IMG/VR virus record: IMGVR_UViG_3300031576_000008
Coordinates: 41,994 to 105,993 of that record
Origin: a virus
DNA: 64,000 nt
Reading direction: 5' to 3' (one strand)
A program made the position numbers and the translations under genes. Below, one piece after another: positions 1,914-63,881 of this stretch. The notes beneath the pieces were generated by a model. That model saw nothing but the letters and a program-made list of their open reading frames with translations. It was not told the origin of the DNA and did not search any database. Each line of letters begins with the position of its first letter. The first letter of the stretch is position 1.

Positions 1914-1937
1914 AATTGAGAGAGGGAACTAGCTTGG

Positions 1938-3725: not shown

Positions 3726-3727
3726 GA

Positions 3728-4048
3728 CTAGCCTCCACGCACAGGCGGGGACATCACCAGCCGTTCCGCGAAAGGATCGAAATCGTTGATCATCTCGCCC
3801 TTCTTTCCGTCCTTGTCGAGCTTGAACGAGAGATAGCCCTCCTTCTTGAGTCGGTAGAATTCCTGCTTGGCGTCCTCGGTCTCCCACGGATTCTGCGGGT
3901 TCCACTTGACCGTGAGATCGCCGGACTTTCCCATGACCGCCATCTGGCCCATCGTCTCCTCCTTCTTTTCGGGCATCAGCTCTTCGAGGCGTGCCTTCTG
4001 GCATTCCGGGCACGTGCAGTCTTTCACAGATTTGAATTTGGCCATCAT
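3728..4048 (-). CDS. small protein ending in di-glycine (possible ubiquitin-like modifier)
   Basis: Ends FDPFAERLVMSPPVRGG-stop; strong RBS at both ATG 4048 and internal ATG 3952. Confidence 0.65.
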   Translation of the reverse strand: MMAKFKSVKDCTCPECQKARLEELMPEKKEETMGQMAVMGKSGDLTVKWNPQNPWETEDAKQEFYRLKKEGYLSFKLDKDGKKGEMINDFDPFAERLVMSPPVRGG

Positions 4049-4467
4049 GCTCCTCCTTCACGCATCGTGTTGGAAATGGCCACAGTCAGCTTGAGCTTGG
4101 GATACTGCGTCTGGATCATCTTGGCGACGGTCACGTACATCTCATTGGCGATGCCGACCATCCTCGGCTCGTCCAGAGCGTCAATGCCGTTGATGACAAG
4201 AGACGACTGCAGGAGCGCCAAGATGTACCCTTCGATCGTGATGGCGATGACCTTGAGGCGATGGCGTTTCTCGCGCGCCGACAGGCCCCGTTCCTTCTTG
4301 ATCTCGGGATAGTTGAGGGCCGCCTTGACGATCTGGTCATGCCAGAACTTGACCGTCTGCCGCGCAAGGCGTTCGCCAATCGCCTTGGTCCTCCTCTCGA
4401 ATGCCTCCTGATTCAAACCGGGCCTCCTTGAGAGATATAAAATTGTGACCGGGCTCGGCATAGCCAC
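4045..4467 (-). CDS. hypothetical protein
   Basis: ORF with ATGA overlap to the next gene. Confidence 0.55.
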   Translation of the reverse strand: MAMPSPVTILYLSRRPGLNQEAFERRTKAIGERLARQTVKFWHDQIVKAALNYPEIKKERGLSAREKRHRLKVIAITIEGYILALLQSSLVINGIDALDEPRMVGIANEMYVTVAKMIQTQYPKLKLTVAISNTMREGGA

Positions 4468-4487
4468 GCCCGGTCGGAAGTTGTGAC

Positions 4488-5357: not shown

Positions 5358-5379
5358 GTAGAACTCCTTTGTTTGGAAA

Positions 5380-5419
5380 TGGCTGCGGGAGTATGGTTGC
5401 TGATGTGCCGTGGTGCGCG
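5380..5419 (-). ncRNA. possible single TIGR-like guide unit
   Basis: Minus strand reads CCA-cggcacatc-AGCAA-CCA-tactcccgc-AG-CCA (two 9-nt segments) directly upstream of the Tas-like gene. Confidence 0.35.
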
Positions 5420-5695
5420 CTAGAGGATCTGCCACTGACCATCCGGGCGGACGGTCATGCCATTGACGCAGGGCCACGAGATGTGGAGATCGCGGAACCA
5501 ACGGACGGCCAGACGAATGCCGCTGCAGCCGTCCATCTTGCAAATCCTCTCGCCATCGAGGACTCTGCCCTTCTGCTTCCCGTCGCGGGAATAAACAAGC
5601 TTGGCCTTGGGATTCGAGTTCACGAACATTCCCCCAAGGCCAAGCGGCTTCATGGCATCGCGGACCTCGTCGATGCGACGCCGGATGACGTGCAT
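5420..5695 (-). CDS. hypothetical protein
   Basis: 91-aa Cys-containing ORF tightly packed in the leftward cluster. Confidence 0.55.
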   Translation of the reverse strand: MHVIRRRIDEVRDAMKPLGLGGMFVNSNPKAKLVYSRDGKQKGRVLDGERICKMDGCSGIRLAVRWFRDLHISWPCVNGMTVRPDGQWQIL

Positions 5696-5696
5696 G

Positions 5697-6101
5697 CTAG
5701 GCTCCCTTCTTGCGATCCTCGGCCCTCATGGACACGGCGACCGCCTCGTAAAGCCGGAACGTGCACCGCAGGCACGACCTCTGATGGACTGCTTCCTTGG
5801 ATTTGCGGTTCCGACTCGCCCGCTCAAGACCATCGATGTCAAGGCAGCTTTCGGTCTCCTGCGATGGATGCAGATGGCGAAACCGGGGAGGCAGCTCAAT
5901 GACGGCCACCGCCTTCACCTTCTGCGAGCATTCGTCGCAGACTCTGACACGGACCGCCAGATCGATGATCCAGTCCAGCCATTCGTTGCTCACGCAACGC
6001 GGCGGTCGACAGAACGCGCGGATCGACTTGAGAACATCCGCATGATCGACATGCAAATGGGCCATGTAGTTTCGCTCCTTTCTTCGAAGTTCCCTCTCCA
6101 A
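5697..6101 (-). CDS. hypothetical Cys-rich protein
   Basis: CDEC and CLRC pairs; start may be internal ATG (MAHLHV). Confidence 0.5.
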   Translation of the reverse strand: MERELRRKERNYMAHLHVDHADVLKSIRAFCRPPRCVSNEWLDWIIDLAVRVRVCDECSQKVKAVAVIELPPRFRHLHPSQETESCLDIDGLERASRNRKSKEAVHQRSCLRCTFRLYEAVAVSMRAEDRKKGA

Positions 6102-6301
6102 AGAAAGGTTACCCGATCAGTACCCGCGAGAAGCCGGTCTTCGACGCAACCGAGAAACGGCGCGGCTTCTTGCGACGCATCATCAGCCGGATTTTCCGGA
6201 GCGCATCCCGTTCGCTCTTCGCGCGGATGCGCACCGCCTGCTCATGCAGGCCGGCAATGTAAACCATGAAGTACGGCATTCGATATCTCCTTTCTGGAGC
6301 A

Positions 6302-6676
6302 TCATGGCACTCCCCTCCTCCGGGGCCGGATCTTCCTCTGCTGGACAGGCAGGGGCGGATACGGCCATGTCATCTGTTTGTCCTTCGCCTTCTGGACAGC
6401 AGCCTTGGCGGCCTTCCTGTCGGGTGGAAGCGTAACGACGACATTCTGGGCGACCATGGCGTACTGCTTCTTCACGTGTGTCTCATACTCCATCCGCTGC
6501 TTCTTGGTCGTCGGCGGATACGGCTGCAAACGGATGGGCGGGAGCACGCGGACCTCCACGTGCTCCCGCCCCGACTGACCCCAGCAGAATCCGATGAGCG
6601 GCACGGAATTCCACCACCAATCCGTCCGCCCACAGAGACTGCAGGGTCCCACCGCCTTGTTTCTTAAGTCGCTCAT
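6302..6676 (-). CDS. hypothetical protein
   Basis: CSLC motif; ATGA overlap with the upstream gene. Confidence 0.55.
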   Translation of the reverse strand: MSDLRNKAVGPCSLCGRTDWWWNSVPLIGFCWGQSGREHVEVRVLPPIRLQPYPPTTKKQRMEYETHVKKQYAMVAQNVVVTLPPDRKAAKAAVQKAKDKQMTWPYPPLPVQQRKIRPRRRGVP

Positions 6677-6939
6677 GGACCTGTCTTCGAGGCCTCTTTC
6701 CGCTCACGGAGCTGCTCCTGCCGCTCCTTGATCTGGCGGTACTTGAGACCGTCGATCGAGATGTGGAAGAACTCCTTGTTGTCGCCGGCGTTGTCACCCT
6801 CGTCGTCGAGCATGATGACGATCGCGATCCCCTTGTACTTGATGACGGCGATGAGCAGCTCCTCGTCGGTGGGCGACTCGCTCTTCGCCTCGTTCTCGTC
6901 ATCGCAGATGATGACCTTCGCGGGGAATTTGAACGACAT
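6673..6939 (-). CDS. hypothetical protein
   Basis: 88 aa; GGAGG RBS. Confidence 0.6.
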   Translation of the reverse strand: MSFKFPAKVIICDDENEAKSESPTDEELLIAVIKYKGIAIVIMLDDEGDNAGDNKEFFHISIDGLKYRQIKERQEQLRERKEASKTGP

Positions 6940-6954
6940 GATTGCCTCCGGTGG

Positions 6955-7221
6955 TTAGTAGTAGCCCCCGAGTTCCGGGGTCGGAACCGAGGAGAATCGC
7001 GCCCGTGTGACAAGCGAGCTGACACGGTCCCATTCGGAATCCGTGATCACTTCCTCATCACAAAGCGCCGCCCCCGTCCACTTCACGTACTTGCGGATCG
7101 TCTCGTAGAGATGATCGTTGGACGGGTTCCGCCGCAGCATGCTCGTGGCATTGGTCAGCACGCGGTAGAACTTGAGCCGCTTCAGGGCGCGCCTGATCGG
7201 ATTCTTTTCAGGCTCCATCAT
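6955..7221 (-). CDS. hypothetical protein
   Basis: 88 aa; AGGAG RBS. Confidence 0.55.
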   Translation of the reverse strand: MMEPEKNPIRRALKRLKFYRVLTNATSMLRRNPSNDHLYETIRKYVKWTGAALCDEEVITDSEWDRVSSLVTRARFSSVPTPELGGYY

Positions 7222-7231
7222 GGCATGACTC

Positions 7232-7999
7232 CTAGATCAGCGCGGCGGGGAACCTCGTCGCGATCGCGCCAACCAACATCCCGTTCTGCGCCTCGAAATT
7301 CTTGATCTCGCGGCGGACGACCAGCCGGTCGTGCTCGCTCTGGGCGATGATGGTCCCGGAGATGTCGGCGGAGATGAGGCGGTCGAGGAAGTCGCTGAAC
7401 TCGCTGCAGACGCCCACCTCAACCGCGAACCGGCGCTGATTGTCGTCCTGACGGTCCTCTTCGCAGAGCTTGTCCTCTTCGAACACCTCGTCGGCGATCT
7501 GCTTGACAAGGTGCAGCTTGGCGAGCTGGTGCACGAGGACGACCGTGTCGGCCATCATGTCGATCTTGATCTGGAAGGTCACCGAGTCTTCGAAATCGTT
7601 GTCTCCGATGTCGGCGACCTCCTCGGGTTCCGGTCTGGCGTCCGGCACGCGCATGACATCGGGATCATTTTCCTCAGCCTCCTCGATGCCGAGCGCATCG
7701 AGCTCCTCGTCGTTCGCGTACATCTCATCGGATCCGACGCGGCACGGGGCGACGTCGAGCTTCCTGAGCTCGTGCGAGGCGCGCATCATGAGGTCGTACT
7801 CGATGCGGGTCTCGTCGGTGGACCGGCCTTCCTTGATGATCTTCATGAGCTCCCAGACCCGCTTCTCGATGATCGCGAGATAGCCCGACAGTCCGATCTC
7901 GCCATCCCAGCCCTGCTCCGCCGCGATCTCCTTGACCCGCGTCATGAGCTTGTTCGCCTTCTCCTCGTTCTTCAGGAAGGCCGCTGCGCTGGCGTTCAT
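7232..7999 (-). CDS. acidic hypothetical protein
   Basis: Start reassigned to ATG 7999 (AAGGAG RBS). Confidence 0.65.
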   Translation of the reverse strand: MNASAAAFLKNEEKANKLMTRVKEIAAEQGWDGEIGLSGYLAIIEKRVWELMKIIKEGRSTDETRIEYDLMMRASHELRKLDVAPCRVGSDEMYANDEELDALGIEEAEENDPDVMRVPDARPEPEEVADIGDNDFEDSVTFQIKIDMMADTVVLVHQLAKLHLVKQIADEVFEEDKLCEEDRQDDNQRRFAVEVGVCSEFSDFLDRLISADISGTIIAQSEHDRLVVRREIKNFEAQNGMLVGAIATRFPAALI

Positions 8000-8229
8000 C
8001 TTGATTTCTCCTTTTTGATGTTCTTGAAAAGGGGCCGCACTTCCAGCGGGAGGAAGTAGAACCAAAGGGGTCTCCCATTCACGTACTGATAGGGATGCAG
8101 ATAAGCGGCCATGGCCGCCTCTATCGCCATTTTCTGGAGCGCCCTCTGGTAGGCTTCCTCGTATTCAGGCATCAGTTCATGGCGCGGCTTCTTGCACTTA
8201 GATCTCACAAGAACAGCCATCACGGCCTC

Positions 8230-8607
8230 CTAGACGCCGATCTCGCGTCCGATCTCTTCTTCCCTCCAAAGCGATTCTTCGACCGTCTCTCCATTGGGTC
8301 CCTTGAGCGCAAGGAAGAAACAGGGTCCGCTGGACCATGGCTCCTCCTGCACGAACTCCACGTAGATCCGCCCGTCCGGCAGGATGTAGCGATGCAGGTC
8401 GTACTCGATGTCGAACATGCCGTAGAACTTCTCCCCGGACAACTCACACTTCACCGGGCTGCCATTCACCGGCCGAGGCCCGATGGTTTCCTGACTGCCG
8501 TCCGGATAGATGCGGGTGATCGTCTCGGTGTAGAACAGCTCTTCCTTGGCTTCCAGCAGCTTCTTGGCACGCTCGCAAAGGCCGATGATCTGGTCAGACC
8601 GGCTCAT
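8230..8607 (-). CDS. hypothetical protein
   Basis: Start ATG 8607 (MSRSDQ) with GAAGGAG RBS; EPWSSGPCFFLAL motif. Confidence 0.6.
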   Translation of the reverse strand: MSRSDQIIGLCERAKKLLEAKEELFYTETITRIYPDGSQETIGPRPVNGSPVKCELSGEKFYGMFDIEYDLHRYILPDGRIYVEFVQEEPWSSGPCFFLALKGPNGETVEESLWREEEIGREIGV

Positions 8608-17031: not shown

Positions 17032-20000
17032 ATGGGAAACTACGGCATTTTGCACGCTCACTCCGAATACAGCGTCCGCGACTCGCTCATCCGCGCCGAA
17101 GACCTGCCTGTATTGGCCAAGTCGAAGGGCTGGGATGCCTGCGCCCTGACCGACCACGGCGGCATCGAGGGCTTGTACACCTTCTCCAAGGCCTGCCGTG
17201 CGAACGGCGTGAAGCCAATCCTTGGCTGTGAGTTCTACGTCGGATGCTCCGACTCCGACAGGGCCCATCACCTGACGGTGCTGGCTAAGAACGTCCGGGG
17301 CTTCACGTCGATGACGGAGCTCCTGTCGATCGCCCACCGCGATCATTACAACGGCAGGAGGCACCGCGCCGACATCCCCATCGACATGATCCTCGAGAAG
17401 CTGACCGACTGCGTCATCCTCTCAGGCTGCTTCTCGAGCCCGTTCTGGAGGGCGTCGGACAAGTCGATGGACGAACTCGTGGCGTTCGTCGACAGGTTCG
17501 GCGACGACTTCTACTTCGAATTTCAGGGTCTCTGGGATTGGCATGAGCAGGTTGATCTTAATTCGCTCGTCATCACCATGTCACGCGAGCTCGGCCGGCC
17601 GCTCGTGGTCACCCCCGATTGTCATTTTGCGACTCCCGACGAATCGCGCTTCCATGAGGCTCTGCTCGCCGTGGCATCCCGCGCTCCTGTCGGTAGCCCC
17701 AAGGCATGGAGGTTCTCGACGCATCTCAACTACGTCCTGACGCCGGAAGAAAGCGTCGCTGGCCTCGTCAAGGCGGGCGTGCCCGAATCAGATGCAAGGA
17801 AGGCGCTGGAGGAGACCGGGAAGATCGCCGCCAAGATCTCCGACTGGTCGTGGGACGACCTGCCTATGCCGAGGATCCCCGACGTCGGCGGCGACATGAA
17901 GAAGCTCGTCTGGGATGGCCTGACGGCCAAGGGGCTCGACCAGACCGATGAATACAAGACCCGGCTCACCGACGAGCTCGACTGCTTCACCAAGGCCGGC
18001 CTCGATCGCTACCTGCTCCTCGTTAGGCATTGCCTGAATCTCTTCCGCAACAATGGAGCCGAGATCGGGCCGCGCGGATCGGTCGGTGGCAGCCTCGTCG
18101 CCTACTGTCTCGGCATCACCAATCTTGATCCGGTCAAGCACGGGCTCATCTGGCAGCGCTTCTACTTCCCCGGCCGCAAGGGCTGGCCGGACGTCGACAT
18201 CGACGTCGACACCCATTTCCGCGAGCGGGTGCCCGAAGTGCTCAGGAAGGAGTTCGGGGATGACCGAGTCGCCCAGATCTCGAACTTCGGTACGTTCGGG
18301 CTCCGGCAGGCGATCAACGACGCCGCCAAGGCCTACGGCATGAAGGTCGATAATCCGCTGTCGGAGTTCGAGCTCCGGGATCTCATCAAGGCGCATGAAG
18401 GCGACGAGGACAAGGTCCCCATCGAGGAGCTCAGGACTTGGCAGGCTCTCCGCGCCAAGAGCCCCGATGCATCCGAGTTCGCCAAGAAGCTCCGGGGCCG
18501 CATGCGCCAGTTCGGTGCCCACGCTGGCGGATTCGTCATCGCCGCCGACAGCCTCCTGTGCGGACGCGGCGCGGTCGTCACGCGCGGCAAGGACAAGGCG
18601 CTCGTCTGGGACATGGGGACCGCCGATGCGCTCGGTTTCGTGAAATTCGACTTCCTCGGGCTCGATTCGCTGGCGGCCATCCGCGAACTCGGACGCTCGA
18701 TCGACATCAAATGGGATGAAGTGCCGCTCGACGATCCGGCGGTCTACACCGATATCTCCGAGGGGCGCACCGCCGCCGTTCCCCAGTTCCTGACGAGCGG
18801 ACTCAGGAGTTTCGCAGAGCGGCTACAGCCCGACAAGTTCGAGGATCTCGTCTGGGCCAACGCCGCGTTCCGGCCGGGCGCGCTCGGGCAGTTCTCCCCG
18901 CAGGAGCTCGCCGAGCGCTACCACGAGAACCCCGACAGCCTGATCGTCTATCAGGAAGACATCATGGCCATCTGCGTCTACATGGCCGGCTTCTCGTGGA
19001 AGGAGGCCGACGGCGTGCGCAAGGTGGTCGCCAAGAAGGAGGGCAGGGACGAGTGGAAGAAGCTCGCCCCCAAGTTTGCCGAAGGATGCGTCAAGCAGGA
19101 CTCCATGACCTACGAGGAGGCGATCATCCTCTGGTCGAGCCTCGAAGAGTTCACAAGGTACGCGTTCAACAAGGCGCATTCGGCCGCCTACAGCTGGAAC
19201 GCCTATCGCATCGCATGGGCCAAGCGCCGCCATCCGATCCACACGTTCGCGGCGCTTCTCAATTCGAGCAAGGAGGAGAAGATTCCGCGCATTCTCGAAG
19301 AAGCCGAGGACAGCTTCGGGCTCAAGCTCCTGCCGCCGGACGCCAACAAGTCCGGGCTGGTATGGATGATCGAGGGGGACGCAATCCGGGCTCCGCTCAA
19401 TCAGTCGGAGCTGATCGACCTGCGCATCACCAAGGCGATCATGAAGCGCCGGGAGTCGGGTCCTTTCGTCTCCAAGAACGACTTCATCACCCGGATGAGT
19501 ACGATCAAGTACCACCCGCAGGTCGTGGACATCCTCTTCGACGGGCGCGGCTTCGCGGCCCATTTCGCGCTGCCGCTCGTCGATCCGAGGATCATCGTCT
19601 CCAAGGACTACATCGAGACGATCCGCTCCTGCATGCAGTGCGATCTCCGGGGCACCTGCCGTCAGGTCGTTCCTCCCGATCTCGGGAAGACGAATGTCCT
19701 CATCGTCGGAGAGGCTCCCGGCAAGGATGAGGACCGCCGGGGCAAGCCGTTCGTGGGCCCATCGGGCCAGCTTCTTTTCAAGCTTCTCGAGGAGAACGGC
19801 ATCAAGCGCACCGATGTGACGGTGACCAATGCCTGCCACTGCAAGCCGCCGTTCGTGCCCGACGAGGATGCCGACGCGTCCGAGCGCCGCTCCCGCAACG
19901 AGGCGCTCATGCTCGACTGCCCGTGGGTCTTCAAGGAGATCGAGCTCATGAAGCCGCCGCTCATCCTCGCCGTCGGGGCCAAGGCGTGGAAGAAGCTCGG

Positions 20001-20211
20001 CGGCGAGGGCGGGATCACCAAGGCCAACGGCACCGAGATCGAGCGCGGCGGATCGAAGATCATGGCATGCCTGCATCCGGCCTTCGTCCTCCGGGACCCG
20101 ACCCAGATGCCTGAGATCGAGCACGCCATCCGCCGCTTCGGCAGGCTTTACCACGCACTCGTGCCCAAAGTGGCCGCTAAGCCTCTCGTTTCGAAAGGAG
20201 CGACGTCATGA
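17032..20211 (+). CDS. dnaE: DNA polymerase III alpha fused to a C-terminal family-4 uracil-DNA glycosylase domain
   Basis: PHP motifs HAHSEYS and LTDHG; RGSVGGSLVAY, PDVDID, KFDFLGL, YAFNKAHS; C-terminal CMQC..GEAPG..GKPFVG..TNACHCKPP..HPAFVLR. Confidence 0.93.
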   Translation: MGNYGILHAHSEYSVRDSLIRAEDLPVLAKSKGWDACALTDHGGIEGLYTFSKACRANGVKPILGCEFYVGCSDSDRAHHLTVLAKNVRGFTSMTELLSIAHRDHYNGRRHRADIPIDMILEKLTDCVILSGCFSSPFWRASDKSMDELVAFVDRFGDDFYFEFQGLWDWHEQVDLNSLVITMSRELGRPLVVTPDCHFATPDESRFHEALLAVASRAPVGSPKAWRFSTHLNYVLTPEESVAGLVKAGVPESDARKALEETGKIAAKISDWSWDDLPMPRIPDVGGDMKKLVWDGLTAKGLDQTDEYKTRLTDELDCFTKAGLDRYLLLVRHCLNLFRNNGAEIGPRGSVGGSLVAYCLGITNLDPVKHGLIWQRFYFPGRKGWPDVDIDVDTHFRERVPEVLRKEFGDDRVAQISNFGTFGLRQAINDAAKAYGMKVDNPLSEFELRDLIKAHEGDEDKVPIEELRTWQALRAKSPDASEFAKKLRGRMRQFGAHAGGFVIAADSLLCGRGAVVTRGKDKALVWDMGTADALGFVKFDFLGLDSLAAIRELGRSIDIKWDEVPLDDPAVYTDISEGRTAAVPQFLTSGLRSFAERLQPDKFEDLVWANAAFRPGALGQFSPQELAERYHENPDSLIVYQEDIMAICVYMAGFSWKEADGVRKVVAKKEGRDEWKKLAPKFAEGCVKQDSMTYEEAIILWSSLEEFTRYAFNKAHSAAYSWNAYRIAWAKRRHPIHTFAALLNSSKEEKIPRILEEAEDSFGLKLLPPDANKSGLVWMIEGDAIRAPLNQSELIDLRITKAIMKRRESGPFVSKNDFITRMSTIKYHPQVVDILFDGRGFAAHFALPLVDPRIIVSKDYIETIRSCMQCDLRGTCRQVVPPDLGKTNVLIVGEAPGKDEDRRGKPFVGPSGQLLFKLLEENGIKRTDVTVTNACHCKPPFVPDEDADASERRSRNEALMLDCPWVFKEIELMKPPLILAVGAKAWKKLGGEGGITKANGTEIERGGSKIMACLHPAFVLRDPTQMPEIEHAIRRFGRLYHALVPKVAAKPLVSKGATS

Positions 20212-20504
20212 AGAGTTACGCGGAAAAAGGCGCGGAGATCGGTCTCTTCGTCGAGGAGAAGAACAAGGCCTATGGCAGCGCCTTCGCCAAGGCTGGGGAA
20301 TTTCTCAAGCTGCTATACCCGGAGGGGGTGGAGCCCGGGCAGTACCGGGACATGCTCCTCCTGACCCGCATCTTCGACAAGATGATGCGCATCGCGACCG
20401 ACAAGGATGCGCTGGGGGAAAGCCCGTACCGGGACATCGCAGGCTACGGCATCATCGGCGATGACACCGAGGAGCGCGAAGCCCGCGCCAAGAAGCCCGT
20501 CTAG
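20208..20504 (+). CDS. nucleotide-modification-associated (DUF1599-like) protein
   Basis: KNKAYGSAF..RIFDKMMRI..DIAGYGI pattern; ATGA overlap with dnaE. Confidence 0.6.
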   Translation: MKSYAEKGAEIGLFVEEKNKAYGSAFAKAGEFLKLLYPEGVEPGQYRDMLLLTRIFDKMMRIATDKDALGESPYRDIAGYGIIGDDTEEREARAKKPV

Positions 20505-20513
20505 GAGGACCTC

Positions 20514-21290
20514 ATGCACCGCGTCACGCCAAAGCCGTTCCTCGTCGGGGAGACCAAGCTCGATCAGGGGGCCATCAAGGCCTATCTCGACCATGTCGGG
20601 ACGAAGTGGTGGGAGATGGAGGATGGCGCTTCGGACTCCGAGAAGCTGATCGAGATCATGGGCCGCCTTTGTTACAGGAGCTGGGAACCCGGATTGAATA
20701 AGAATGTCTCCAAGATCCGCAAGGGCAACGATCTCTACGTCGGCAACATCCTCAAGTCGAAGCACGGCTCGGTGACCGAGCACGGCGTTTCGAACTGGAT
20801 CATCGCCGACTGCTCGAGAGTTCTGACACACGAGCTCGTTCGCCATCGCGCCGGGACGGCCTTCTCGCAGGAGAGCCTGCGGTTCGTCCGGCTCGACGAT
20901 CTGGGGCTCTGGATGCCGCCGGAGGTGACCGACCCCGTGCTCATCCGGATGTGCGAGGAGAAGTTCAAGGCCGACGAGGAGTTCCAGAAGAGGCTGTCGG
21001 ACTACCTCAAGCTCGACGAGCCCGGGAAGGACTTTCACTACAAGAAGCTCTGGACGAGCTTCATGCGCCGGTTCGCCCCGGAAGGCCTCGCCACCACGAT
21101 CGGCCTCTCGATCAACATGCGCTCGATGCGGCATGTCATCGAGTACCGCACGGCCGAATCGTCGGAGGTCGAGATCCGGTTCGTCTTCGACCAGATCGGC
21201 CGGATCGCCAAGGAGCGCTGGCCGAACCTCATGCAGGATTTCGTGAGGCAGGAGGACGGCGAGTGGAAGCCGGAGCACTCGAAGATTTGA
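20514..21290 (+). CDS. thyX: FAD-dependent thymidylate synthase
   Basis: GRLCYRS, HGSVTEH, THELVRHR-x-FSQESLRFV. Confidence 0.93.
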   Translation: MHRVTPKPFLVGETKLDQGAIKAYLDHVGTKWWEMEDGASDSEKLIEIMGRLCYRSWEPGLNKNVSKIRKGNDLYVGNILKSKHGSVTEHGVSNWIIADCSRVLTHELVRHRAGTAFSQESLRFVRLDDLGLWMPPEVTDPVLIRMCEEKFKADEEFQKRLSDYLKLDEPGKDFHYKKLWTSFMRRFAPEGLATTIGLSINMRSMRHVIEYRTAESSEVEIRFVFDQIGRIAKERWPNLMQDFVRQEDGEWKPEHSKI

Positions 21291-32798: not shown

Positions 32799-33794
32799 TT
32801 AGATCGTTAGCCTTGCGTCGATGATCGCTTCAGCAGCCAAGAGGTCCTTCGAGTACTTGTCGAAGTACTTCGGATTGATATGTCGTGCGAACGAGAACCA
32901 GCCTTTGAGGCTCGTGAGCTCGTTCTTGAGCTCCTTCCAGTCGGTGACGGCCTTGCCCTCCTTGTTGACGCCGAGAACCGCCGCCTTCTTGATCTGATTG
33001 ACGGCGGCGCGATGATTCCTCCTCGCATCACGCGGGATGTTGAGCTTCTCGTTGATGACGATGCCACAGAGGATCTGCCGCCCGCTCTTCTTGCGCATGA
33101 CGTGGAACTTCGCGCGGTTGAGCTTGAATCCGTTGGCTTCGATGATCCGGCAGAGTCCTCCGACGATGCCGACGACCTTGTGCTTGTTGGATGAGAAGGC
33201 CAGATTGTCGGCGTAGCGCGTGTAGCGCCCGTCCTCCGGGCACTGCTCGCGCATGAACTTGGCCAGCTTGAAGTCGATGATCTTGAATGCCATGTTCGCA
33301 AGAAACGGCGAGAGCGCGCTTCCCTGCGGCAGGCCCAGCTTGAACATGTCCAAGGGTGACGGGATGAACGCGAACTGGATCAGGCCCAAGGGCGGCGGAA
33401 TGTCGAGAATCCTCTTCCCCGTGACGGCCTCGGTCGGGAAGATCTTGAACCGCGTCTCCAGTTCTGCAGGCGTCAGGTTCTCCGCCTCCCATGCCCGCTT
33501 GACGTGCTCGGGCGTGACGTTCGGGAAGAAGTCCTTGATGTCCAGATGCACGATGAAGTTCCGCCCGACGTGGGCGGAGGCGTGCTCCTTGATGCCCTTG
33601 TTGCGCACGAAGCCTGTGGCGTAGGGACCGGCACCGATCCCGGTGCGGTACTCGTTGTACAGCAGCTGACGCTGCTTCATCTTGAGGTCGTCGTCAGGCG
33701 CGTGGATGATGCGCAGTCCGCCGCTCGCCTTGGGAATGACGATCCGCTTGTAGCGCTTCTCCATCAAACGGCAGGCAGCCATGAGCTCTTCCAT
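32799..33794 (-). CDS. retron-type reverse transcriptase (YADN variant)
   Basis: IPKASGGLRIIHAP..LK..Q, region X HASAH, LDIKDFFP, GLPQGSALSP..AN, YTRYADNL, region Y QILCGIVIN; 331 aa from ATG 33794; no maturase or endonuclease domain. Confidence 0.92.
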   Translation of the reverse strand: MEELMAACRLMEKRYKRIVIPKASGGLRIIHAPDDDLKMKQRQLLYNEYRTGIGAGPYATGFVRNKGIKEHASAHVGRNFIVHLDIKDFFPNVTPEHVKRAWEAENLTPAELETRFKIFPTEAVTGKRILDIPPPLGLIQFAFIPSPLDMFKLGLPQGSALSPFLANMAFKIIDFKLAKFMREQCPEDGRYTRYADNLAFSSNKHKVVGIVGGLCRIIEANGFKLNRAKFHVMRKKSGRQILCGIVINEKLNIPRDARRNHRAAVNQIKKAAVLGVNKEGKAVTDWKELKNELTSLKGWFSFARHINPKYFDKYSKDLLAAEAIIDARLTI

Positions 33795-33911
33795 GATCTC
33801 TCCCCCATCCGGGCGGTTCGCCCGGGTCAAATAATTCGGTCCATCTGGCGACGAATTTCTTCGTATTTGCCTCCTAAAGATGCTTTAGGGGCCCTTTTTG
33901 GGCCCGCTGGA

Positions 33912-36743: not shown

Positions 36744-39218
36744 TTACTTGTCCTTCTTCCGACGGCCGATGCCGAAGATCCGGTCGACCTCCTCACGCCG
36801 GAACTTCTTGTCGCATTCCTTCTGGAACTCCGGGGTCTCGAACCTCTCGCGCACCGGCTCGAATGACCGCTCGACCTGATAGACAGACCACTTCCTGATG
36901 GATTCCTTGCGCTCCATCATCTCGCGCGCAGCGCAGCGTTCCTCCTCGTCACGCAGGTAGGTGCGTGAGGCGCACTCGTCGCACGCGAAGTAGAGCTTCT
37001 TGCGCTCCTCATTTTCGAGCTCCTTCTTCTCGATCTCTTTCTGTTCGGGCCCTTCTTTCTTGGACTTGGGTGGAACCAGATGGAGCGGACTTCCACAGGG
37101 GACCTCGCAGGCGCACCGGACATACCTTGGCTGGTTGAAGATCGTGTCGATGTCGAACGCTGGCTTGGTGACCGCATGCTCGCTGGCGAGCCGGACAGGG
37201 TGCTCTCTCTGCTTGACGACTTCGATGATGGAGCCATCTGCCCGATGCATCGTGATCTCCCTTTCCACGTTGATCGTCCGGTCGACCACGTAGAGCTTGA
37301 TCACCTCGGTCTTGGCCTTGGGATACATGTCGCCCAGCGAGTAGGGAAGCGTGTGATACGGACAGAACCCTTCGCCCGCGCATTTCGTCCGAAGCATGGC
37401 GTAGTTGATCGTGACGTACCGCTCTTCTTGCTCCTTCTCGCTTACCGAGCCTCCGGTCCGCTCCAGAACCACCGGCCTGACGACGCGCCTCAGCTCGACG
37501 GTCTGGATCTCGCCCGATGCCTTGTCGAACGTCCCGTCCGGACGCCTGACTTTCCACCAGCCCAGCTTGTGGACGCGCTTGACGGGCCTGCCGCAGATCT
37601 CGCAGCAGAACTTGTCGGGCTCGTTGATGATCTTGACCGGCGGGTTGTAGATCACGGCGGTCTCCGCCAGACTCAGGCTGCGAGGCGTGTGGAGGCTGCT
37701 GCTCCCATCGAGGTCTGCATACGTTGTCGAAATCCGCTTGAGCAGGAGCAGCAGGTCGAAGTGAACCACCCCTGTCTGGCTGGCGACTTCCTTGGCCAAC
37801 GCGAGCTTCCGGCGGCTCTTGTCGATCTCCTGCCGCATGCCGAGGATCTTCGCCTTGGAGAGCTCGTACTGGATCTGGTCCTCGCGGGTGGACAGGTTGA
37901 GATCCTTTTGGAACATCTCCAGATAGACGATCTGATCGACACTACGCCGGATCTCATCCTCGAAGCGGGCCACCCGCTCGACGGCCCCCGCGAACCGCTT
38001 TCTCGTGGAATTGAAGTAGTTGCGGATGCGTTGCCTCAGCTCGACGATCTGGGCAGGGTTCTCGAACTTGCGCTGACGCTGGATGGTCGAGCCGAGTCCT
38101 TTGACCGTCCGGTGCTCATCGCAGAGGAGCGATCCGGCGGCCTGTGGCTGCTTGCAGTCCGGGTAGCGGATGCACTTCGCATGATCGCTGCAGAATGGGC
38201 CCGGCTCGTCGATCCGGAGCTTCCTGACCTTGAGGGACGTAGGATCGATCGCATCCGGATCTTCGCCTCGTTGCTCCGCCTCCCGGCGGGCTTCATCCAT
38301 GGCCTTGTCCTTGCACGTCGGGCAGTGGGAGCGATCCGTATGAGCATGGCAGGTCTTGTCGTTGTGATGGTTGAGGATCTCCTCGCAGGCCACTTCGCCC
38401 GCGCCAAGACATGGCCGGCACATCTCGAGAACCGGATCCTTCTTGACCGTCCGCCTGCCGAGACACGTGACGCAGGCGCGCTTCCTGTCGCCGAGGCATT
38501 CCGGGCAGACCGCGTCCTCGCCGGTTTCCACCTCGCGCTTGCCGGCGCAAGCGGCACACTTCTTCTTCGCGTTGCACTTCCGGAGCATGATGCCCGCGCC
38601 TTCACAAGCGTAGCAATCACCGTTCGCCTGCTTGTCCCCATTGCACGCCGGACAGGGATCATCCATGCGCGGCCGATGCACGATCACTTCGGGGTTGGCG
38701 CAGAGGAAGCAGACGTATTTCCCTAGATATGGTGCAAGCCGCTCCCGGAAGATGCTATCGACATCGTTGAGATAGACGCGATCAGTCGAGCCGATGGGAC
38801 CGCGCCGACCCCAGCGAAGCGACGCGCTCCGGGGCTCCCGACCTTCGGGATCGGTCATCTCTTCGTGGACCTTGCAGAAGAGCGAACCCGAAAGGGCCAG
38901 CTCCTTGCAGTCGGCCTTCTCCCAGCTGCAGAGCTTCTGGGCAACCTTCATGAGGACGGCCGAGACCTCCTCGCCGCAGGAGGCGCACGTGCCGGGCCTG
39001 AGCCAGTAGCACTTCTCGCACCGCTGCGAGACGCCAACATTGACAGTCTCGCACTCGGGGCAATTCCAGCTGAAGGTCTCCCGGTAATGCTCACGGCAGA
39101 GGAGCATGATGCCGAGAGCCTCCACCTCGACTTCCCATGTCGCCTCGTGCGCGCACAGGGGATACGTGCATTGTCCCTGCACGCCCATGCCGATCGCTTT
39201 GATGAGTCTTGCGGTCAT
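36744..39218 (-). CDS. large multi-zinc-finger protein with DnaJ-like CxxCxG repeats and a coiled coil
   Basis: 824 aa; six CxxCxG motifs, two C..C..GSLxCxxH units, central coiled coil. Confidence 0.75.
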   Translation of the reverse strand: MTARLIKAIGMGVQGQCTYPLCAHEATWEVEVEALGIMLLCREHYRETFSWNCPECETVNVGVSQRCEKCYWLRPGTCASCGEEVSAVLMKVAQKLCSWEKADCKELALSGSLFCKVHEEMTDPEGREPRSASLRWGRRGPIGSTDRVYLNDVDSIFRERLAPYLGKYVCFLCANPEVIVHRPRMDDPCPACNGDKQANGDCYACEGAGIMLRKCNAKKKCAACAGKREVETGEDAVCPECLGDRKRACVTCLGRRTVKKDPVLEMCRPCLGAGEVACEEILNHHNDKTCHAHTDRSHCPTCKDKAMDEARREAEQRGEDPDAIDPTSLKVRKLRIDEPGPFCSDHAKCIRYPDCKQPQAAGSLLCDEHRTVKGLGSTIQRQRKFENPAQIVELRQRIRNYFNSTRKRFAGAVERVARFEDEIRRSVDQIVYLEMFQKDLNLSTREDQIQYELSKAKILGMRQEIDKSRRKLALAKEVASQTGVVHFDLLLLLKRISTTYADLDGSSSLHTPRSLSLAETAVIYNPPVKIINEPDKFCCEICGRPVKRVHKLGWWKVRRPDGTFDKASGEIQTVELRRVVRPVVLERTGGSVSEKEQEERYVTINYAMLRTKCAGEGFCPYHTLPYSLGDMYPKAKTEVIKLYVVDRTINVEREITMHRADGSIIEVVKQREHPVRLASEHAVTKPAFDIDTIFNQPRYVRCACEVPCGSPLHLVPPKSKKEGPEQKEIEKKELENEERKKLYFACDECASRTYLRDEEERCAAREMMERKESIRKWSVYQVERSFEPVRERFETPEFQKECDKKFRREEVDRIFGIGRRKKDK

Positions 39219-40397: not shown

Positions 40398-40781
40398 CTA
40401 GACCTTCGCGGGCTGGAACTTCCCGGCGACGAGATCTTCGAGGTTCGTTGCGACCCTCGTTTCCTTCGTGCCGGCGTAGCGGGCGACCTCGACTCCTTTC
40501 TCGTAGAAGATGAACGTCGGGATCATCTCGATCTTGAGCGTGTCGATGATCCAGAGATTCTTGTCGCAGTTGACCGTGTAGAACGCGACCAGCCCGAACT
40601 TCTGGTTGAGCCGCTCGAGCATCGGACCGGGCTGCTCTTGCAGATCCTGTTTCTGCTCCTGCACGGGAGCGATCTCAGTGCAGCCGCCTCACCACTTCGC
40701 GTAGAGGGTGAGCAGCGTCCAGCGGTTCATCCTCATGCGGTCCTCGAGGGTGTCCATCGTGATCGTGTGTGGAAGGAACAT
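40398..40781 (-). CDS. thioredoxin-fold selenoprotein candidate (W-U-G-G-C)
   Basis: AAAGGAG RBS and ATG 40781; LYAKW-TGA(40691-40689)-GGC-TEIAPV; downstream VNCD..IPTFIFYEKG Trx signature; SECIS-like hairpin directly after the UGA. Confidence 0.8.
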
Positions 40782-40951
40782 TTTCTTCTCCTTTCTGCCA
40801 TATGCTAGGCCTCGCTTGAGTGTGTGAACCGCTCACACTCCTCATCTCAAGCGGGCCATCTAGTGCCTTATAGTTAAATGACCAGCGGGCGGACGCCTTC
40901 CGTCAGCTTGCCGGCGCGCGCATCGGTGATGAAGCGCTCGATGGCCGTGAT

Positions 40952-43066: not shown

Positions 43067-44326
43067 CTAAACCGATCTCAAGATCCGGTCCCAGTTGTGC
43101 TTCATCACATCCGGTCCGACAGCGACGAAGTTGAGATTGCGGGAATCGAAGATGAGCTTCGCGGCCTCATGCACCTCCTTGGGCGTCACCGCCCGATTCA
43201 TCATGATCACGACGTCAGGGTCATGATCGAGCCCGTAGTCGAACTGGTACGTGGCCTTCCAAAGCGCCATGTCCTTGGCCCGTTCAAGCGACCGGATGAA
43301 CTCGCCGATCATCATCTCCTTGGCCCGGTCGACTTCCTCCCGTGTGACGCCCTTGTCGACGATCTTCTCCGTTTCCTTGAGGATCGCCTTTAAGGCCTTC
43401 GGAGCTTGGTGAGGAGAGGTGGACGTGTTCACCCGGAAGACACCCGTGTCCGGCAGGAAGGCCGTTTCAGCCCCGATCAAGTAAGCCAGTCCTTCGCGAT
43501 CCCGCACCTGTTCGAAGAGCCGCGATGACTGGCTTCCTCCAAGCACGACGGAGAGGACATTGATGGCGCGCCGCACCTCTTGCGAACATCCCCCGGTGGT
43601 GACGCCGACCGTGAAGTGGGTCTGCTCTAATCTCTTCGTCTTCAGGCTCGTCTGGAAGCCGTTCTGATTGTTCCTGAAGTGCTCGAGATGCCGCCTTGGT
43701 CCGATCTGGATCTTGGTGAACTGGCGCACGGCCTGTCGCTCGATCTGCTCGTCGATGTCGCCGGCAATCGAGACGATGATGTTGGTCCCCGAGTAATAGG
43801 TGCGCCACCAGTCGACCATCTGCTTATGGCGGAGTGCCGAGATGCTCTTGATCGATCCGCCGATTGGGAGCGCCAGCGGGTTGGGGTCGTAGACGAGCTT
43901 GTGCCAGAGATTCTGAAGGATCCATTCCGGCTCATCTTCCTCGGAGCGGATCTCCTCGAGGATGACCTTGCGCTCCATTTCGAACTCGTCCTTCGGAAAG
44001 CGCGGCTCGATCGTCATGCTGGTGATGATGTCGAGCGCCGACTTCACCTTGTCGGCCTTGGTAACGATGAAGTACCACGTCCGGTCGATCTCCGTGAACG
44101 CGTTGAAGTCCGCGCCCATCCGGTCGAGCATCCTCGAAACTTCCGTGGACTTGGGGAACTGCCGGCATCCCTTGAAGCACATGTGCTCCAAGAAATGCGA
44201 GACACCCGACGTCTCTTTCTCCTCGTATCTCGAACCGGTCTTGACCATGACGACGATGGCCACCGCCCGCGTTCCCGACATGGGCGTCGTGATCAACGTC
44301 AGCATATTGGAAAGGTTGTGTCGCAT
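43067..44326 (-). CDS. M16 family zinc peptidase
   Basis: GSRYE, GVSHFLEHMCFKG (HxxEH), NAFT, ERKVILEE, SSRLF..VR..GLAY. Confidence 0.92.
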   Translation of the reverse strand: MRHNLSNMLTLITTPMSGTRAVAIVVMVKTGSRYEEKETSGVSHFLEHMCFKGCRQFPKSTEVSRMLDRMGADFNAFTEIDRTWYFIVTKADKVKSALDIITSMTIEPRFPKDEFEMERKVILEEIRSEEDEPEWILQNLWHKLVYDPNPLALPIGGSIKSISALRHKQMVDWWRTYYSGTNIIVSIAGDIDEQIERQAVRQFTKIQIGPRRHLEHFRNNQNGFQTSLKTKRLEQTHFTVGVTTGGCSQEVRRAINVLSVVLGGSQSSRLFEQVRDREGLAYLIGAETAFLPDTGVFRVNTSTSPHQAPKALKAILKETEKIVDKGVTREEVDRAKEMMIGEFIRSLERAKDMALWKATYQFDYGLDHDPDVVIMMNRAVTPKEVHEAAKLIFDSRNLNFVAVGPDVMKHNWDRILRSV

Positions 44327-45395: not shown

Positions 45396-45579
45396 GTTTC
45401 TCCTCCTTGCTCACGATCTTCTGCGCGTCCTCTTCGCAGTAAGGCTTTCCGCCCTGCTCGAACATTGGGACGCGGACGCCGTCCTTCATGAAGACGGCAT
45501 CGAACATGCACAAAGGGCCGTTGCAGACGGTGCAACGGCCCAAGCCCGACACATCCAGATCACAATCTTTGCACTTCAT
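45388..45579 (-). CDS. small Cys-rich protein
   Basis: 63 aa overlapping both neighbours. Confidence 0.5.
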   Translation of the reverse strand: MKCKDCDLDVSGLGRCTVCNGPLCMFDAVFMKDGVRVPMFEQGGKPYCEEDAQKIVSKEEKHV

Positions 45580-47120
45580 CAGTTCCCTTTCTCCTTGAGG
45601 GAGCGCAGTCGTTCCGTGAACAGCTTGCGCGGGGGATAGTCGGCGGGCGCGATCTTGAGGAGCATCTCAATATCAGAGATGGCCCCCTTGACGTCGCCAC
45701 GGATGGACCGGATCTGGGCCCGGTTGCCATAGGCACCCAGCGCCTTCGGATTAAGCTCGATCATCCGATTGAAGTCGGGCAATGCCCCGTCATAGTTCTT
45801 CATCTGCATGTAGGCCGTGGCTCGTGCGCCCAGCGCATCTGTCGAATTCGGGTCGATCTTGAGCGCGTCGCTGGCGTCCTCGATGGCGGCGATGTAATCG
45901 AGCTTGTAGACCTTCGCGACAGCCCGATTGGCGAGTGCGGTGACGTTGGTTGGATCGGACTTCATCGCTGCGCTGTAATGCTCGATGGCGCGATCGTAGT
46001 TGCCGTTCTGCATGCAGACCATCGCCTCGTAGATGGACTTCTGCGCGTCCTTCCGGCGGGACTCCTCGGCGGCGCGCTTCTTCTCGTCCTCCGCACGCTT
46101 GGTCTCCTCCGCGCGCTTTTCGCCCTCTCGCTTGGCCTTCTCATCGGATGCCAGCCGGTCACGCTCCACCTTCTCGTGGGCGGTCTTGAAGCCTTCCTCG
46201 GCCTTCTTCTTCTGCCAGATGATGATGCCTACGGCCGCAAGAGGAAGAAGTGCACCCAGCACCACGGCCGTGATCAGGTTCCTCCGGCGGAACATGAACT
46301 TCTTGGCGCGATAGATGACGCTTGGAGCGTGAGCGAGGATCGGCTCCCCCTTGAGCCAGCGGTCAAGATCGGCGGCAAGTCCGCCAGCCGTCTGATAACG
46401 CGCCCGCTTGTCCTTTTCGAGGCACTTCATCACGATTGTCTGAAGCTCGGAGTCCACATCCTCGATGGGCTGGGGGTCGTCTTCCTCGACCCTTTTCAGG
46501 GTTTCGTAGATCGTCTTGCCCTTGAATGGACTCTGGCCCGCCAGAAGCTCGTAGAGTGTCACACCGAGCGAATAGACATCCGTCCGCTCATCGACCTTCT
46601 CCCCACGGGCCTGCTCCGGCGACATGTAGGACGGCGTGCCTACGATCAGGCCGGAGGCGGAGAGATTGGATGCGCCCTTGGTAGAACGTGCGAGTCCGAA
46701 GTCCATGACATAGACGCGGTGTTTCCGATTCTTCTCCTCGACCATGATGTTGGCGGGCTTGATGTCGCGATGGATGACGCCTTCCCTGTGCGCGAAGGCG
46801 ATGGCCCGCGCCGCGTTCATCATGAGCCGGACGAGCAGCTTGACATCGCCTCCATGAATGATGTAACCGTTGATGTACTGCATCGCGATGTAGTGGCGTC
46901 CATGGTCCTCGCCGATTTCGTAGACTGACGCGATGTTGGGGTGATTGAGCTTGGCGGCCAGCTGCGCCTCGCGGTGGAAACGGGCCAGCTGCTCCTCGTC
47001 GAAACCCTTCATGAATTTGAGGGCGACCCGACGGTCGAGCTCCGTGTCATGAGCAAGCCAGACCTCGCCCATGCCGCCTTCGCCAAGCTTTTCCTCGAGC
47101 ATGAACTTTCCGAGGTTCAT
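45579..47120 (-). CDS. Hanks-type Ser/Thr kinase with a TM helix and TPR repeats
   Basis: LGEGGMGEV, VALK, HRDIKPAN, DFGLA, GTPSYMSPEQ, DVYSLG; hydrophobic helix; about four TPRs. Confidence 0.95.
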   Translation of the reverse strand: MNLGKFMLEEKLGEGGMGEVWLAHDTELDRRVALKFMKGFDEEQLARFHREAQLAAKLNHPNIASVYEIGEDHGRHYIAMQYINGYIIHGGDVKLLVRLMMNAARAIAFAHREGVIHRDIKPANIMVEEKNRKHRVYVMDFGLARSTKGASNLSASGLIVGTPSYMSPEQARGEKVDERTDVYSLGVTLYELLAGQSPFKGKTIYETLKRVEEDDPQPIEDVDSELQTIVMKCLEKDKRARYQTAGGLAADLDRWLKGEPILAHAPSVIYRAKKFMFRRRNLITAVVLGALLPLAAVGIIIWQKKKAEEGFKTAHEKVERDRLASDEKAKREGEKRAEETKRAEDEKKRAAEESRRKDAQKSIYEAMVCMQNGNYDRAIEHYSAAMKSDPTNVTALANRAVAKVYKLDYIAAIEDASDALKIDPNSTDALGARATAYMQMKNYDGALPDFNRMIELNPKALGAYGNRAQIRSIRGDVKGAISDIEMLLKIAPADYPPRKLFTERLRSLKEKGN

Positions 47121-62112: not shown

Positions 62113-62960
62113 GTGAGCCGAGTCAAAGGCGCAAAGAACGTGTTAGGCCTTTGACCCGTAAGGACTTAGAGATAAGTCCTACTGATGCACCTTCCACGAG
62201 TAATCGTGGTCGAAAAACCGGGTGAATTCGGTGGAGCCCAAACGGGTAATGCCGTGGGGAATACCGAGCGAAGCCTCGAAAGAGGAACGTGTAGAGACTA
62301 TCCCGAAAGGGAGTAGGCCCAGAAGGGGAAGTTCCTTCTGAGGTCGAAGCGCCCGGCCCCGCGAAAGCGGGTGATGATATAGTCCGATCCTTCGGGAAAC
62401 CGGAGAGCGAGCTTAAGTGCTTGCATGCCAAAGATCAGGGCTGGCTTTACGACACCAACGTGGTGGCGGCGGCTCCGGCGGTGACGACGGAGCAGCTGTA
62501 CTTCGTGGTGCCGAAGGGTCAGGCGGGCAAGACGGCGTCGGACACGAACCTCGACGTCGGCGGGCAGTTGACGGGCGTCAACGCCTTCCAGATCAGGAGC
62601 TGGGTCTTCAAGATGGAAGATCTGACGCTCACGGCCAACGCGAAGCTGCTGCAGATCGGCAACTTCACGCTGATCATCAACAGCACGCCCATCCCCGACC
62701 CGATCCCGATCGAGTTCATCATGGGTGGGGCGGCGCTGCTCGAGTCGGTTCGTGGCCCGGCGGCGGCTCCGGAGTTCCGCTCGATCGGCGGCACCGGCAA
62801 CATCACGAACGTGCTGAGCTTCACTCGGCCGTTCCTCGTGACGCTCGATCCGGGCGACACGTTCAACGTGCAGGTGGTGTACCCCGGCGGCATCTCGCCG
62901 ACGGAGACCATCCGCACGCGCGTGAACCTGTTCGGTCGTCGCGCGAAGCCCGTGATGTGA
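62113..62960 (+). CDS. candidate single jelly-roll capsid protein; join(62113..62143,62434..62960), 185 aa
   Basis: AGGAGG RBS and GTG 62113; splicing gives MSRVKGAKNVYQGWLYDT..; beta-rich LYDT..LYF.VPKG..GKT..DTN..GQL; followed by a strong terminator. Confidence 0.6.
62144..62433 (+). mobile_element. group I intron (290 nt, no internal ORF)
   Basis: IGS CUGAU-GCAC (62182-62190) pairs with 5' exon GUGU (G-U at the splice site) and 3' exon AUCAG; P3 CCGGG/CCCGG; P7 GACUAU/AUAGUC; terminal G 62433; reading frame restored. Confidence 0.88.
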
Positions 62961-63021
62961 ATCCTGTTGGTATACAAGGACTTACGTTCTTGTGTACCGA
63001 AGGGCCACAAGAAGGCAAAGA

Positions 63022-63063
63022 TCAGGTGGGGTCGAAAGGCCCCACCTGTTTCTTTTTCTCTTT
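63022..63063 (+). terminator. intrinsic terminator
   Basis: CAGGTGGGG-TCGAAAGG-CCCCACCTG followed by TTTCTTTTT. Confidence 0.85.
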
Positions 63064-63131
63064 CTCTTCAAGTTGTATCTAAGTTTAGCGGTCTAAGATC
63101 CGCCACACAGAAAGCTAAACTTGGAGACAAC

Positions 63132-63881
63132 GTGGGTGATCGTGATGAGGCCGTTAGGCAGTTTCTGGCTAATCCCGAGAAGCGCGGTGTGGTCTACGGC
63201 ACACTTCTTGGCGATGCCACGCTGACGTGGATCCCGCCGGGGCGCTATCAGTACAAGAAGAACCATCTGAAGTGCGGCAAGGACGGGACCTGTTATATCC
63301 GCGTCAAACATGCCGCTGACCAGAAGTCGCTCGTCCTGCACAAGCACGAGTTCATGAAGGAGATCGCCGGCAAGATCTTCGAGGCTAAACCGGCCAATCT
63401 CAAATGGCAGATGAACTACGGCTTCTACACCCAGACGTCGCTTGTATGGAAGGAGATCTACGACGAGTTCTACAAGGACGCACGCATCACGACGAACACA
63501 AAGGGGCGCATCCAGAAGTACAAGCGTATCAACCGCCAGATCCTCGATCAGGTGACTGATCGAGGTCTCGCATGGTGGATCATGGACGACGGCTGTTACA
63601 GCTACAATAAATCCAGCAGCTTCTTCCGTCTCTCCACACAGGGCTACAGCAAAGAAGAAAACCAGCTCATCATCGACTGGTTCAAGGACAAGTACAACGT
63701 CAAGGCGAGTATGCAGAAGAACGCCAGCAGAGCCACCAATGCGCTCGCCACTTACGACTCCTACGTGATCTACATCGGCGAGAGGAACTTTGCCAGCCTG
63801 CGTGATCGTCTGTCTCCCTTCATCATCCCGTCTCTCTGTACCAAGCTCGGCTATCCGGTCCAGCCGCTTCAGGTCGTCTGA
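63132..63881 (+). CDS. free-standing LAGLIDADG homing endonuclease
   Basis: VYGTLLGDA and LAWWIMDDG, LSTQGYSKEE; GTG start with GGAG RBS. Confidence 0.88.
   Translation: MGDRDEAVRQFLANPEKRGVVYGTLLGDATLTWIPPGRYQYKKNHLKCGKDGTCYIRVKHAADQKSLVLHKHEFMKEIAGKIFEAKPANLKWQMNYGFYTQTSLVWKEIYDEFYKDARITTNTKGRIQKYKRINRQILDQVTDRGLAWWIMDDGCYSYNKSSSFFRLSTQGYSKEENQLIIDWFKDKYNVKASMQKNASRATNALATYDSYVIYIGERNFASLRDRLSPFIIPSLCTKLGYPVQPLQVV

Follow-up and report, generated by a model that had tools for sequence, protein, structure and literature searches.

A phage thioredoxin gene with UGA at the attacking cysteine position, a candidate for bacterial-type selenocysteine decoding

The analysed stretch of DNA (the window; 64,000 nucleotides) corresponds to bases 41994–105993 of a 105,993-bp IMG/VR virus record, which is linear, about 65% complete as estimated by CheckV, and has a G+C content of 59.7%. 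A thioredoxin frame is located on the minus strand of the window at positions 40398–40781, comprising 127 codons followed by a TAG stop (40400–40398) and interrupted by a single in-frame TGA at codon 31 (40689–40691, minus strand). This TGA, the proposed selenocysteine codon, occupies the first, nucleophilic Cys position of the motif W-C-G-G-C, and the minus-strand translation around it reads LYAKW-TGA-GGC-GGC-TGC-TEIAPV. The ATG start codon (40781–40779) is preceded by the Shine–Dalgarno (SD) sequence AAAGGAG (40788–40794, minus strand) at a spacing of 6 nt. For the immediate neighbours of the gene, no function was recognisable using Pfam and PHROG. Without read-through, only a 30-residue peptide would be produced, and gene catalogues split the gene into a 30-aa call and a 74- or 88-aa call. 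The original prediction, which was made from the sequence before any search, had pointed out that the list of open reading frames contains just the 88-aa tail, that a strong ribosome-binding site precedes ATG 40781 and that the UGA falls exactly on the nucleophilic Cys. All three statements were borne out: the table-11 list holds 40398–40664, starting from GTG 40664, the AAAGGAG at 40794–40788 is in place, and the UGA position is confirmed by the frame translation and the thioredoxin alignment.

The 30 codons ahead of the TGA have a GC3 of 0.79, compared with 0.88 past it, align with residues 1–30 of P0005, a Cys-containing relative described below, and lie behind the sole good SD sequence. 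By composition and alignment they are real coding sequence. No ATG, GTG or TTG is present between codons 19 and 39, and neither the internal GTG 40664 nor ATG 40622 has an SD-like 4-mer at the proper distance upstream; as a background, such a 4-mer was found for 57 of 103 coding-looking ORFs versus 15% of random positions. Expression of the tail as a separate protein by internal initiation was rejected as the main reading, given that the tail contains no active site and has no SD sequence before GTG 40664 or ATG 40622.

With Cys substituted at the UGA, the translated frame matched Pfam PF00085 over residues 10–111 (54 bits versus a cut-off of 23.5, E = 1.8e-14). The NCBIfam thioredoxin equivalog TIGR01068 was hit with E = 7.7e-14 at 51.7 bits, below its cut-off of 96.8, and no PHROG family was matched at E ≤ 0.001. 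Numerous PDB structures of thioredoxins and of protein disulfide isomerase domains were matched as well. Judged by these profile scores, the phage protein is a divergent thioredoxin carrying an insertion and not a canonical TrxA. An AlphaFold2 model (pLDDT 85.8, pTM 0.81) shows the canonical order beta-alpha-beta-alpha-beta-alpha-beta-beta-alpha, and the best Foldseek matches were all thioredoxins, with TM-scores (by target) of 0.8–0.9 and rmsd values of 1.3–2.3 Å. In the model, a strand of residues 21–27 precedes the motif W30-U31-G-G-C34 and the helix of residues 32–36, and the TGA position lies at the N-terminus of helix alpha-2. The alignment shows hardly any variation at W30, at C34 and at column 31, which is Cys except for the UGA of this gene; P88, the conserved cis-Pro, is invariant. 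In the PDB thioredoxins the UGA corresponds to the leading Cys of WCGxC, and in every other aligned thioredoxin to that of WCGPC; for the phage protein to have the first Cys of the dithiol motif, the UGA must be decoded as Sec or Cys. Profile matches and predicted structure thus agree that the read-through product is a real thioredoxin.

A HMMER search of 1.84 billion cluster representatives returned two matches below 1e-30, namely the window's own tail and P0005, a full-length protein of 122 aa that is 51% identical (BLASTP E = 1e-47; HMMER E = 7.6e-33) and the sole full-length close relative in that collection. The active site of P0005 is W-C-A-G-C, with C31 aligned to U31 of the phage thioredoxin. 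A Cys/UGA pair at this column, suggested as a check alongside the original prediction, was therefore found in the BLASTP alignment, and U31 and C31 form a predicted Sec/Cys pair of the kind used in selenoprotein prediction (PMC13188914).

A second relative, P0003 (82 aa), was obtained by a word-index search and is 80% identical over the tail; it is encoded on a 6.5-kb contig (6,537 bp) which, like that of P0005 (4,359 bp), is known from Logan assemblies only. Its sequence starts M-QEHQPGPM, at the codon equivalent to GTG 40664, which is the first possible start past the TGA. The tail of P0003 is open, shows conservative substitutions and has kept the cis-Pro as well as other positions of the fold. 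Because the Logan gene calls give P0005 at full length but split the present phage gene into a 30-aa piece (P0038) and the 88-aa tail (P0154), an in-frame stop in the P0003 gene is very probable; if its codons 19–39 resemble those of the phage gene, the stop would be located within that 21-codon stretch, which includes the U position. On the evidence of its gene call, P0003 probably carries the same stop.

The thioredoxin clade has three known members only. Further word-index searches (with the full protein, for shorter proteins matching the N-terminal piece, and with P0005) added no clade members. No relative was found in IMG/VR using the protein, a two-sequence alignment or two hand-made degenerate motifs, and one match to a degenerate motif was a chance hit inside a DNA polymerase I gene. 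Matches in JGI metagenomes were TlpA-like WCPPC proteins of 32% identity and not orthologues. A scan of GTDB genomes with the motif FIFYEKGVEV retrieved nothing, and in tblastn the thioredoxin matched isolated phages at 28–29% identity only.

The use of TGA in the rest of the record was evaluated on coding frames recognised by a GC3 of 0.75–0.9. The 106 coding-looking ORFs end in TGA (35), TAG (44) or TAA (27), and the gene of a 1059-aa DnaE-type DNA polymerase is among those terminated by TGA. A scan was made for stops with coding-looking sequence before and after them in the same frame. Among the coding-looking frames of the 106-kb record, no TGA other than that of the thioredoxin was in-domain, and the position of the thioredoxin TGA on the one catalytic column of 127 is more than chance. 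Other matches of the scan were neighbouring genes in the same frame, mostly with a start codon a few codons past the stop; three stops had no obvious start (TGA at window 41904–41902, TGA at 34772–34770 and TAG at 3071–3069). Since TGA is a normal stop in about one third of the ORFs and no other in-domain TGA occurs, site-specific recoding with an unchanged code is indicated.

A SECIS-like stem-loop was computed for the minus strand at 40630–40685, beginning 4 nt past the UGA. The fold consists of a lower stem GGCUGC/GCAGCC of 6 bp (40685–40680 with 40635–40630), a middle stem AGAUC/GAUCU of 5 bp plus three interrupted pairs, with an 8-nt internal loop on the 3′ side, and an upper stem GCUCC/GGAGC of 5 bp (40670–40666 with 40659–40655). 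The apical loop CGUGCA (6 nt, 40665–40660) is 23 nt from the UGA; its second and third bases are G and U. The hairpin had been drawn in this way from the beginning, including the loop 23 nt downstream and the G at position 2, and the computed fold reproduces it. The bSECIS model constrains the loop to 3–9 nt, the upper stem to 4–16 bp, G to the first two loop positions and the distance between UGA and loop to 16–37 nt, with an energy condition of MFE ≤ −7.5 kcal/mol (PMC13188914, including the legend of Fig. 2). In the bacterial SECIS search that had been recommended as a check, the phage hairpin lay within all four constraints, with an MFE of −24.5 kcal/mol.

The statistical weight of the hairpin was assessed against several backgrounds. 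With an MFE of −25.9 kcal/mol for 76 nt, the z-score relative to dinucleotide shuffles is −0.32 and the stability is unremarkable. The loose bSECIS model was passed in the MFE fold by 15.7% of 3237 genomic TGA triplets, and a strict version (stem ≥ 5 bp plus the G[G/U] motif) by 3.6%. When the same 22 residues were recoded synonymously according to the codon usage of the genome, 9.2% of the recodings passed the loose and 4.6% the strict version, and 14% folded at least as stably as the hairpin. Bases from two rare codons, GCT (10% of Ala) and GAT (33% of Asp), pair with codon positions 1 or 2 that are constrained. Outside the hairpin the gene shows strongly adapted codon choice; its codon-adaptation minimum (codons 31–55) lies over the hairpin, but genome-wide this value ranks no lower than the 15th percentile. 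The loop misfits the commonest N1-G-[G/U]-N-N2 form, in which N1 and N2 pair (here C and C), and at a relaxed threshold Rfam gave no SECIS family over the thioredoxin gene. Overall, the hairpin is mildly unusual and statistically weak alone, and lends modest support to a SECIS role, with a likelihood ratio of perhaps 5–20.

Compared with canonical thioredoxins, the phage protein has a 14-residue insertion (a 14-column gap in the alignment) at Q41–M54, encoded at 40620–40661 on the minus strand. It is placed in the middle of helix alpha-2 and overlaps the 3′ half of the hairpin. In the model, residues 37–52 form a low-confidence loop (block pLDDT approximately 60) between the helices of residues 32–36 and 53–61. 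Insertions in the same place were found in the relatives, with 7 residues in P0005, the Cys form, and 8 in P0003. The upper-stem 3′ arm is encoded by Q41-E42-Q43, a part of the insertion that is also occupied in the relatives (by QEH in P0003). About six residues around QKQDLQ occur in this phage only; they encode the internal loop and the middle-stem 3′ arm. The initial proposal that an atypical insertion encodes the 3′ arm of the hairpin needs correction. About half of the insertion is also present in the Cys relative, and it is not purely a carrier of the SECIS; because the Cys-form P0005 has 7 extra residues there, the insertion is in part a lineage trait independent of Sec.

No selA, selB or selD gene was detected in the 106-kb, ~65%-complete record. 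The record contains 24 tRNA genes, including tRNA-Cys(GCA) and tRNA-Trp(CCA), and no credible tRNA with a UCA anticodon was found in it, even at lowered ARAGORN thresholds. The sole ARAGORN "SeC" call was rejected as it needs a 597-nt intron, and the Rfam tRNA-Sec matches, which all scored under the cut-off, fell on regular tRNAs (Tyr, Ser and others). Decoding of the UGA as selenocysteine would thus need the host machinery, or genes located in the third of the genome that the record lacks. As to the host, the DnaE-type polymerase has no close kin in IMG/VR and is 27–32% identical to those of isolated phages (Rhizobium and Streptomyces phages), and an M16 peptidase encoded in the window gave mixed phyla in the protein atlas and nothing in the GTDB scan.

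The portion of this large phage genome captured in the record serves replication and nucleotide metabolism. Its replication and repair genes code for the DnaE-type polymerase, a helicase, a primase, ThyX, a gp32-like protein, a RecA/UvsX-like protein and exonucleases; a DNA ligase gene is located outside the window. Upstream of the window, on the minus strand at genome positions 17226–20612, the record encodes an adenosylcobalamin-dependent ribonucleoside-triphosphate reductase of 1128 aa (TIGR02505, 476 bits versus a cut-off of 340). The reductase matched in two stretches, and an intein-like insert at about residues 320–700 matched intein-containing GyrA, RFC and helicase models.

Taken together, the gene is interpreted as a virus-encoded selenocysteine thioredoxin (W-U-G-G-C) of a large tailed phage, with a probability of roughly 0.6 on the sequence evidence. 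The original prediction had called it a probable selenoprotein, and this is upheld in part: the fold, the pairing of the UGA with a Cys column, the bSECIS geometry and the normal use of TGA elsewhere speak in its favour, and the hairpin is weak on its own. Translation would begin at ATG 40781 and proceed to the UGA at 40691–40689, where the stem-loop, with its CGUGCA loop 23 nt from the UGA, would recruit host SelB with GTP and Sec-tRNA(Sec). Selenocysteine would then be inserted in place of termination, yielding a 127-residue thioredoxin whose selenolate at the attacking position would make it a more reactive disulfide reductase. Class II ribonucleotide reductases are re-reduced by thioredoxin, and for this reason the phage's own adenosylcobalamin-dependent ribonucleoside-triphosphate reductase would be the most plausible client. 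Decoding by SelB and tRNA-Sec, reliance on the host and the role of the reductase as client are all presumptive. The fuller proposal, in which a phage selenoprotein feeds its own B12-dependent reductase and the alpha-2 loop has been lengthened so that coding sequence doubles as SECIS, is put at even odds.

That a nonsense mutation has converted TGC or TGT at the catalytic Cys into TGA, leaving a pseudogene with a hairpin that is a chance fold in GC-rich coding sequence, is considered unlikely. It would fit with the TGA being seen directly in one genome only, with a thermodynamically unexceptional hairpin in a genome where 16% of TGAs pass the loose model, and with a record that holds no Sec machinery. 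However, an estimated 35–40 of the 127 codons are one substitution from a stop, which leaves a chance of a few percent for a hit on codon 31; no other lesion is present, GC3 is in the coding range on both sides of the TGA, and codon choice is adapted outside the hairpin. The intact tail of P0003, together with its apparently identical truncation, would moreover imply two lineages keeping a dead gene intact. The same truncation pattern in P0003 also speaks against a sequencing or assembly error, or a minority variant, in what would be an ordinary Cys thioredoxin with TGC or TGT as the true codon. One base separates TGA from either, but an error landing on exactly that base is very unlikely, and JGI/IMG, ENA and Logan assemblies all list the gene as 30-aa and 88-aa pieces, although the same reads may underlie them; this explanation is regarded as very improbable.

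Purposeful read-through of the UGA with a residue other than Sec is quite unlikely. Neither the Cys column nor the hairpin can tell which residue is inserted, and Cys might be delivered by a tRNA-Sec-like tRNA(Cys) with a UCA anticodon and SelB, by a suppressor tRNA, or Trp or Cys by near-cognate decoding. Precedent is provided by the tRNA-Sec-like Cys tRNAs and the allo-tRNAs with nonsense anticodons described from bacteria (PMC5389517), and the approximately 35% of the genome missing from the record, besides the 24 phage tRNAs with Cys(GCA) and Trp(CCA), might include a suppressor tRNA. Against this, relaxed ARAGORN thresholds gave no UCA tRNA, the special Cys tRNAs are rare, Trp at the nucleophile would abolish catalysis, the near-cognate route is inefficient, and Cys would be better served by plain TGC, which makes up 83% of the Cys codons here. 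A code with TGA as a sense codon for Trp or Gly would remove the nucleophile at this column, no other gene needs read-through, and genome-wide reassignment is effectively refuted by the stop usage of the 106 coding-looking ORFs, including that of the polymerase gene. Recoded phages do exist and serve as precedent, but the probability assigned to this explanation is practically negligible.

Phage thioredoxins and glutaredoxins, e.g. T4 NrdC, reduce phage ribonucleotide reductases. The present gene shares with them that a small phage redoxin occurs in a genome also encoding a ribonucleotide reductase, and differs by the missing PHROG match, the UGA in place of the Cys codon and the distance of 62 kb from the reductase gene. 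In the fdhF SECIS of E. coli, the spacing from the UGA to the upper stem is 11 nt, compared with 18 nt in the phage hairpin. Like the fdhF-type SECIS/SelB system as represented in the bSECISearch model (PMC13188914), the phage gene has a stem-loop in coding sequence 3′ of the UGA, GU in the loop and a spacing within range. Unlike it, the phage hairpin has no sequence resemblance to fdhF and no bulged U in the upper stem, and is a candidate SelB site by geometry.

Bacterial thioredoxins (PF00085) with UxxC are an experimentally verified selenoprotein family, exemplified by WP_010956703.1 (PMC13188914). The phage protein agrees with these in fold, family model and Sec for the attacking Cys of WCxxC, as well as in the stem-loop inside the ORF right after the UGA, with G in the first two loop positions and a distance within 16–37 nt. 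It differs in being phage-encoded, in the motif U-G-G-C and in the 14-residue alpha-2 insertion over the hairpin; in addition, no close bacterial homologue was detected and the decoding machinery is not on the record. Viral selenoproteins have been described with GPx1 of Molluscum contagiosum virus and GPx4 of fowlpox virus (PMC1802603), which likewise are virus-borne redox selenoproteins relying on the host Sec machinery, the fowlpox SECIS also being inside the ORF. The poxvirus proteins are, however, glutathione peroxidases decoded by a eukaryotic kink-turn SECIS with SBP2 and eEFSec, whereas the phage protein is a thioredoxin with a bacterial-type hairpin. No report of a phage-encoded selenoprotein was found in the searchable literature, and a 2026 review of prokaryotic selenoproteomes is silent on phages and viruses. 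The gene would be a mechanistically ordinary bacterial-type selenoprotein gene in an unusual carrier.

If the selenocysteine reading is true, productive use of the gene would depend on host Sec machinery and selenium, or on a tRNA-Sec encoded in the third of the genome not covered by the record, and selenium metabolism would be a determinant of phage fitness or host range. Phage replication could then be linked to the selenium metabolism of the host, which would aid host prediction, as the host must have the Sec trait. Such genes would also be systematically truncated in phage gene catalogues, and small phage redoxins would offer a compact natural test bed for the rules of bacterial SECIS elements.

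Several further features of the record were observed. The main tRNA array extends over genome positions 259–8600, and tRNA-His(GTG) is among the 24 tRNA genes of the phage; a Thg1-like tRNA-His guanylyltransferase is encoded at window 1099–2274 (minus strand; phrog_4717, E = 2e-36). Unusual 8/4 tRNA-His molecules without G-1 have been reported from phage tRNA clusters (PMC5389517). Apart from the main array and upstream of the window, ARAGORN called a tRNA-Ser with the anticodon ACT (A34), which is unusual for bacteria, at genome 35657–35740 (minus strand).

Among elements of mobile type, a group I intron was identified at window 62124–62406 (plus strand; Rfam RF00028, 55.7 bits, E = 2e-11); behind it, at 62967–63881 (plus strand; PF03161, E = 4.9e-24), lies an ORF for a LAGLIDADG_2 homing endonuclease. 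A reverse transcriptase is encoded at 32799–33830 (minus strand; RVT_1, E = 8.9e-15), and a transposase-like ORF lies in the phage replication region at 4488–5543 (minus strand; phrog_4285, E = 9e-44). The co-directional gene run of the thioredoxin contains a eukaryote-type Ser/Thr kinase fused to TPR repeats (window 45579–47120, minus strand; Pkinase, E = 3e-47) and a complete, host-like M16 insulinase-type peptidase (43067–44326, minus strand; E = 1e-33 and 1e-30). Two genes downstream of the thioredoxin, at 36744–39218 on the minus strand, a protein of 824 aa without a Pfam or PHROG match is encoded, which contains many CxxC pairs in zinc-ribbon-like repeats.
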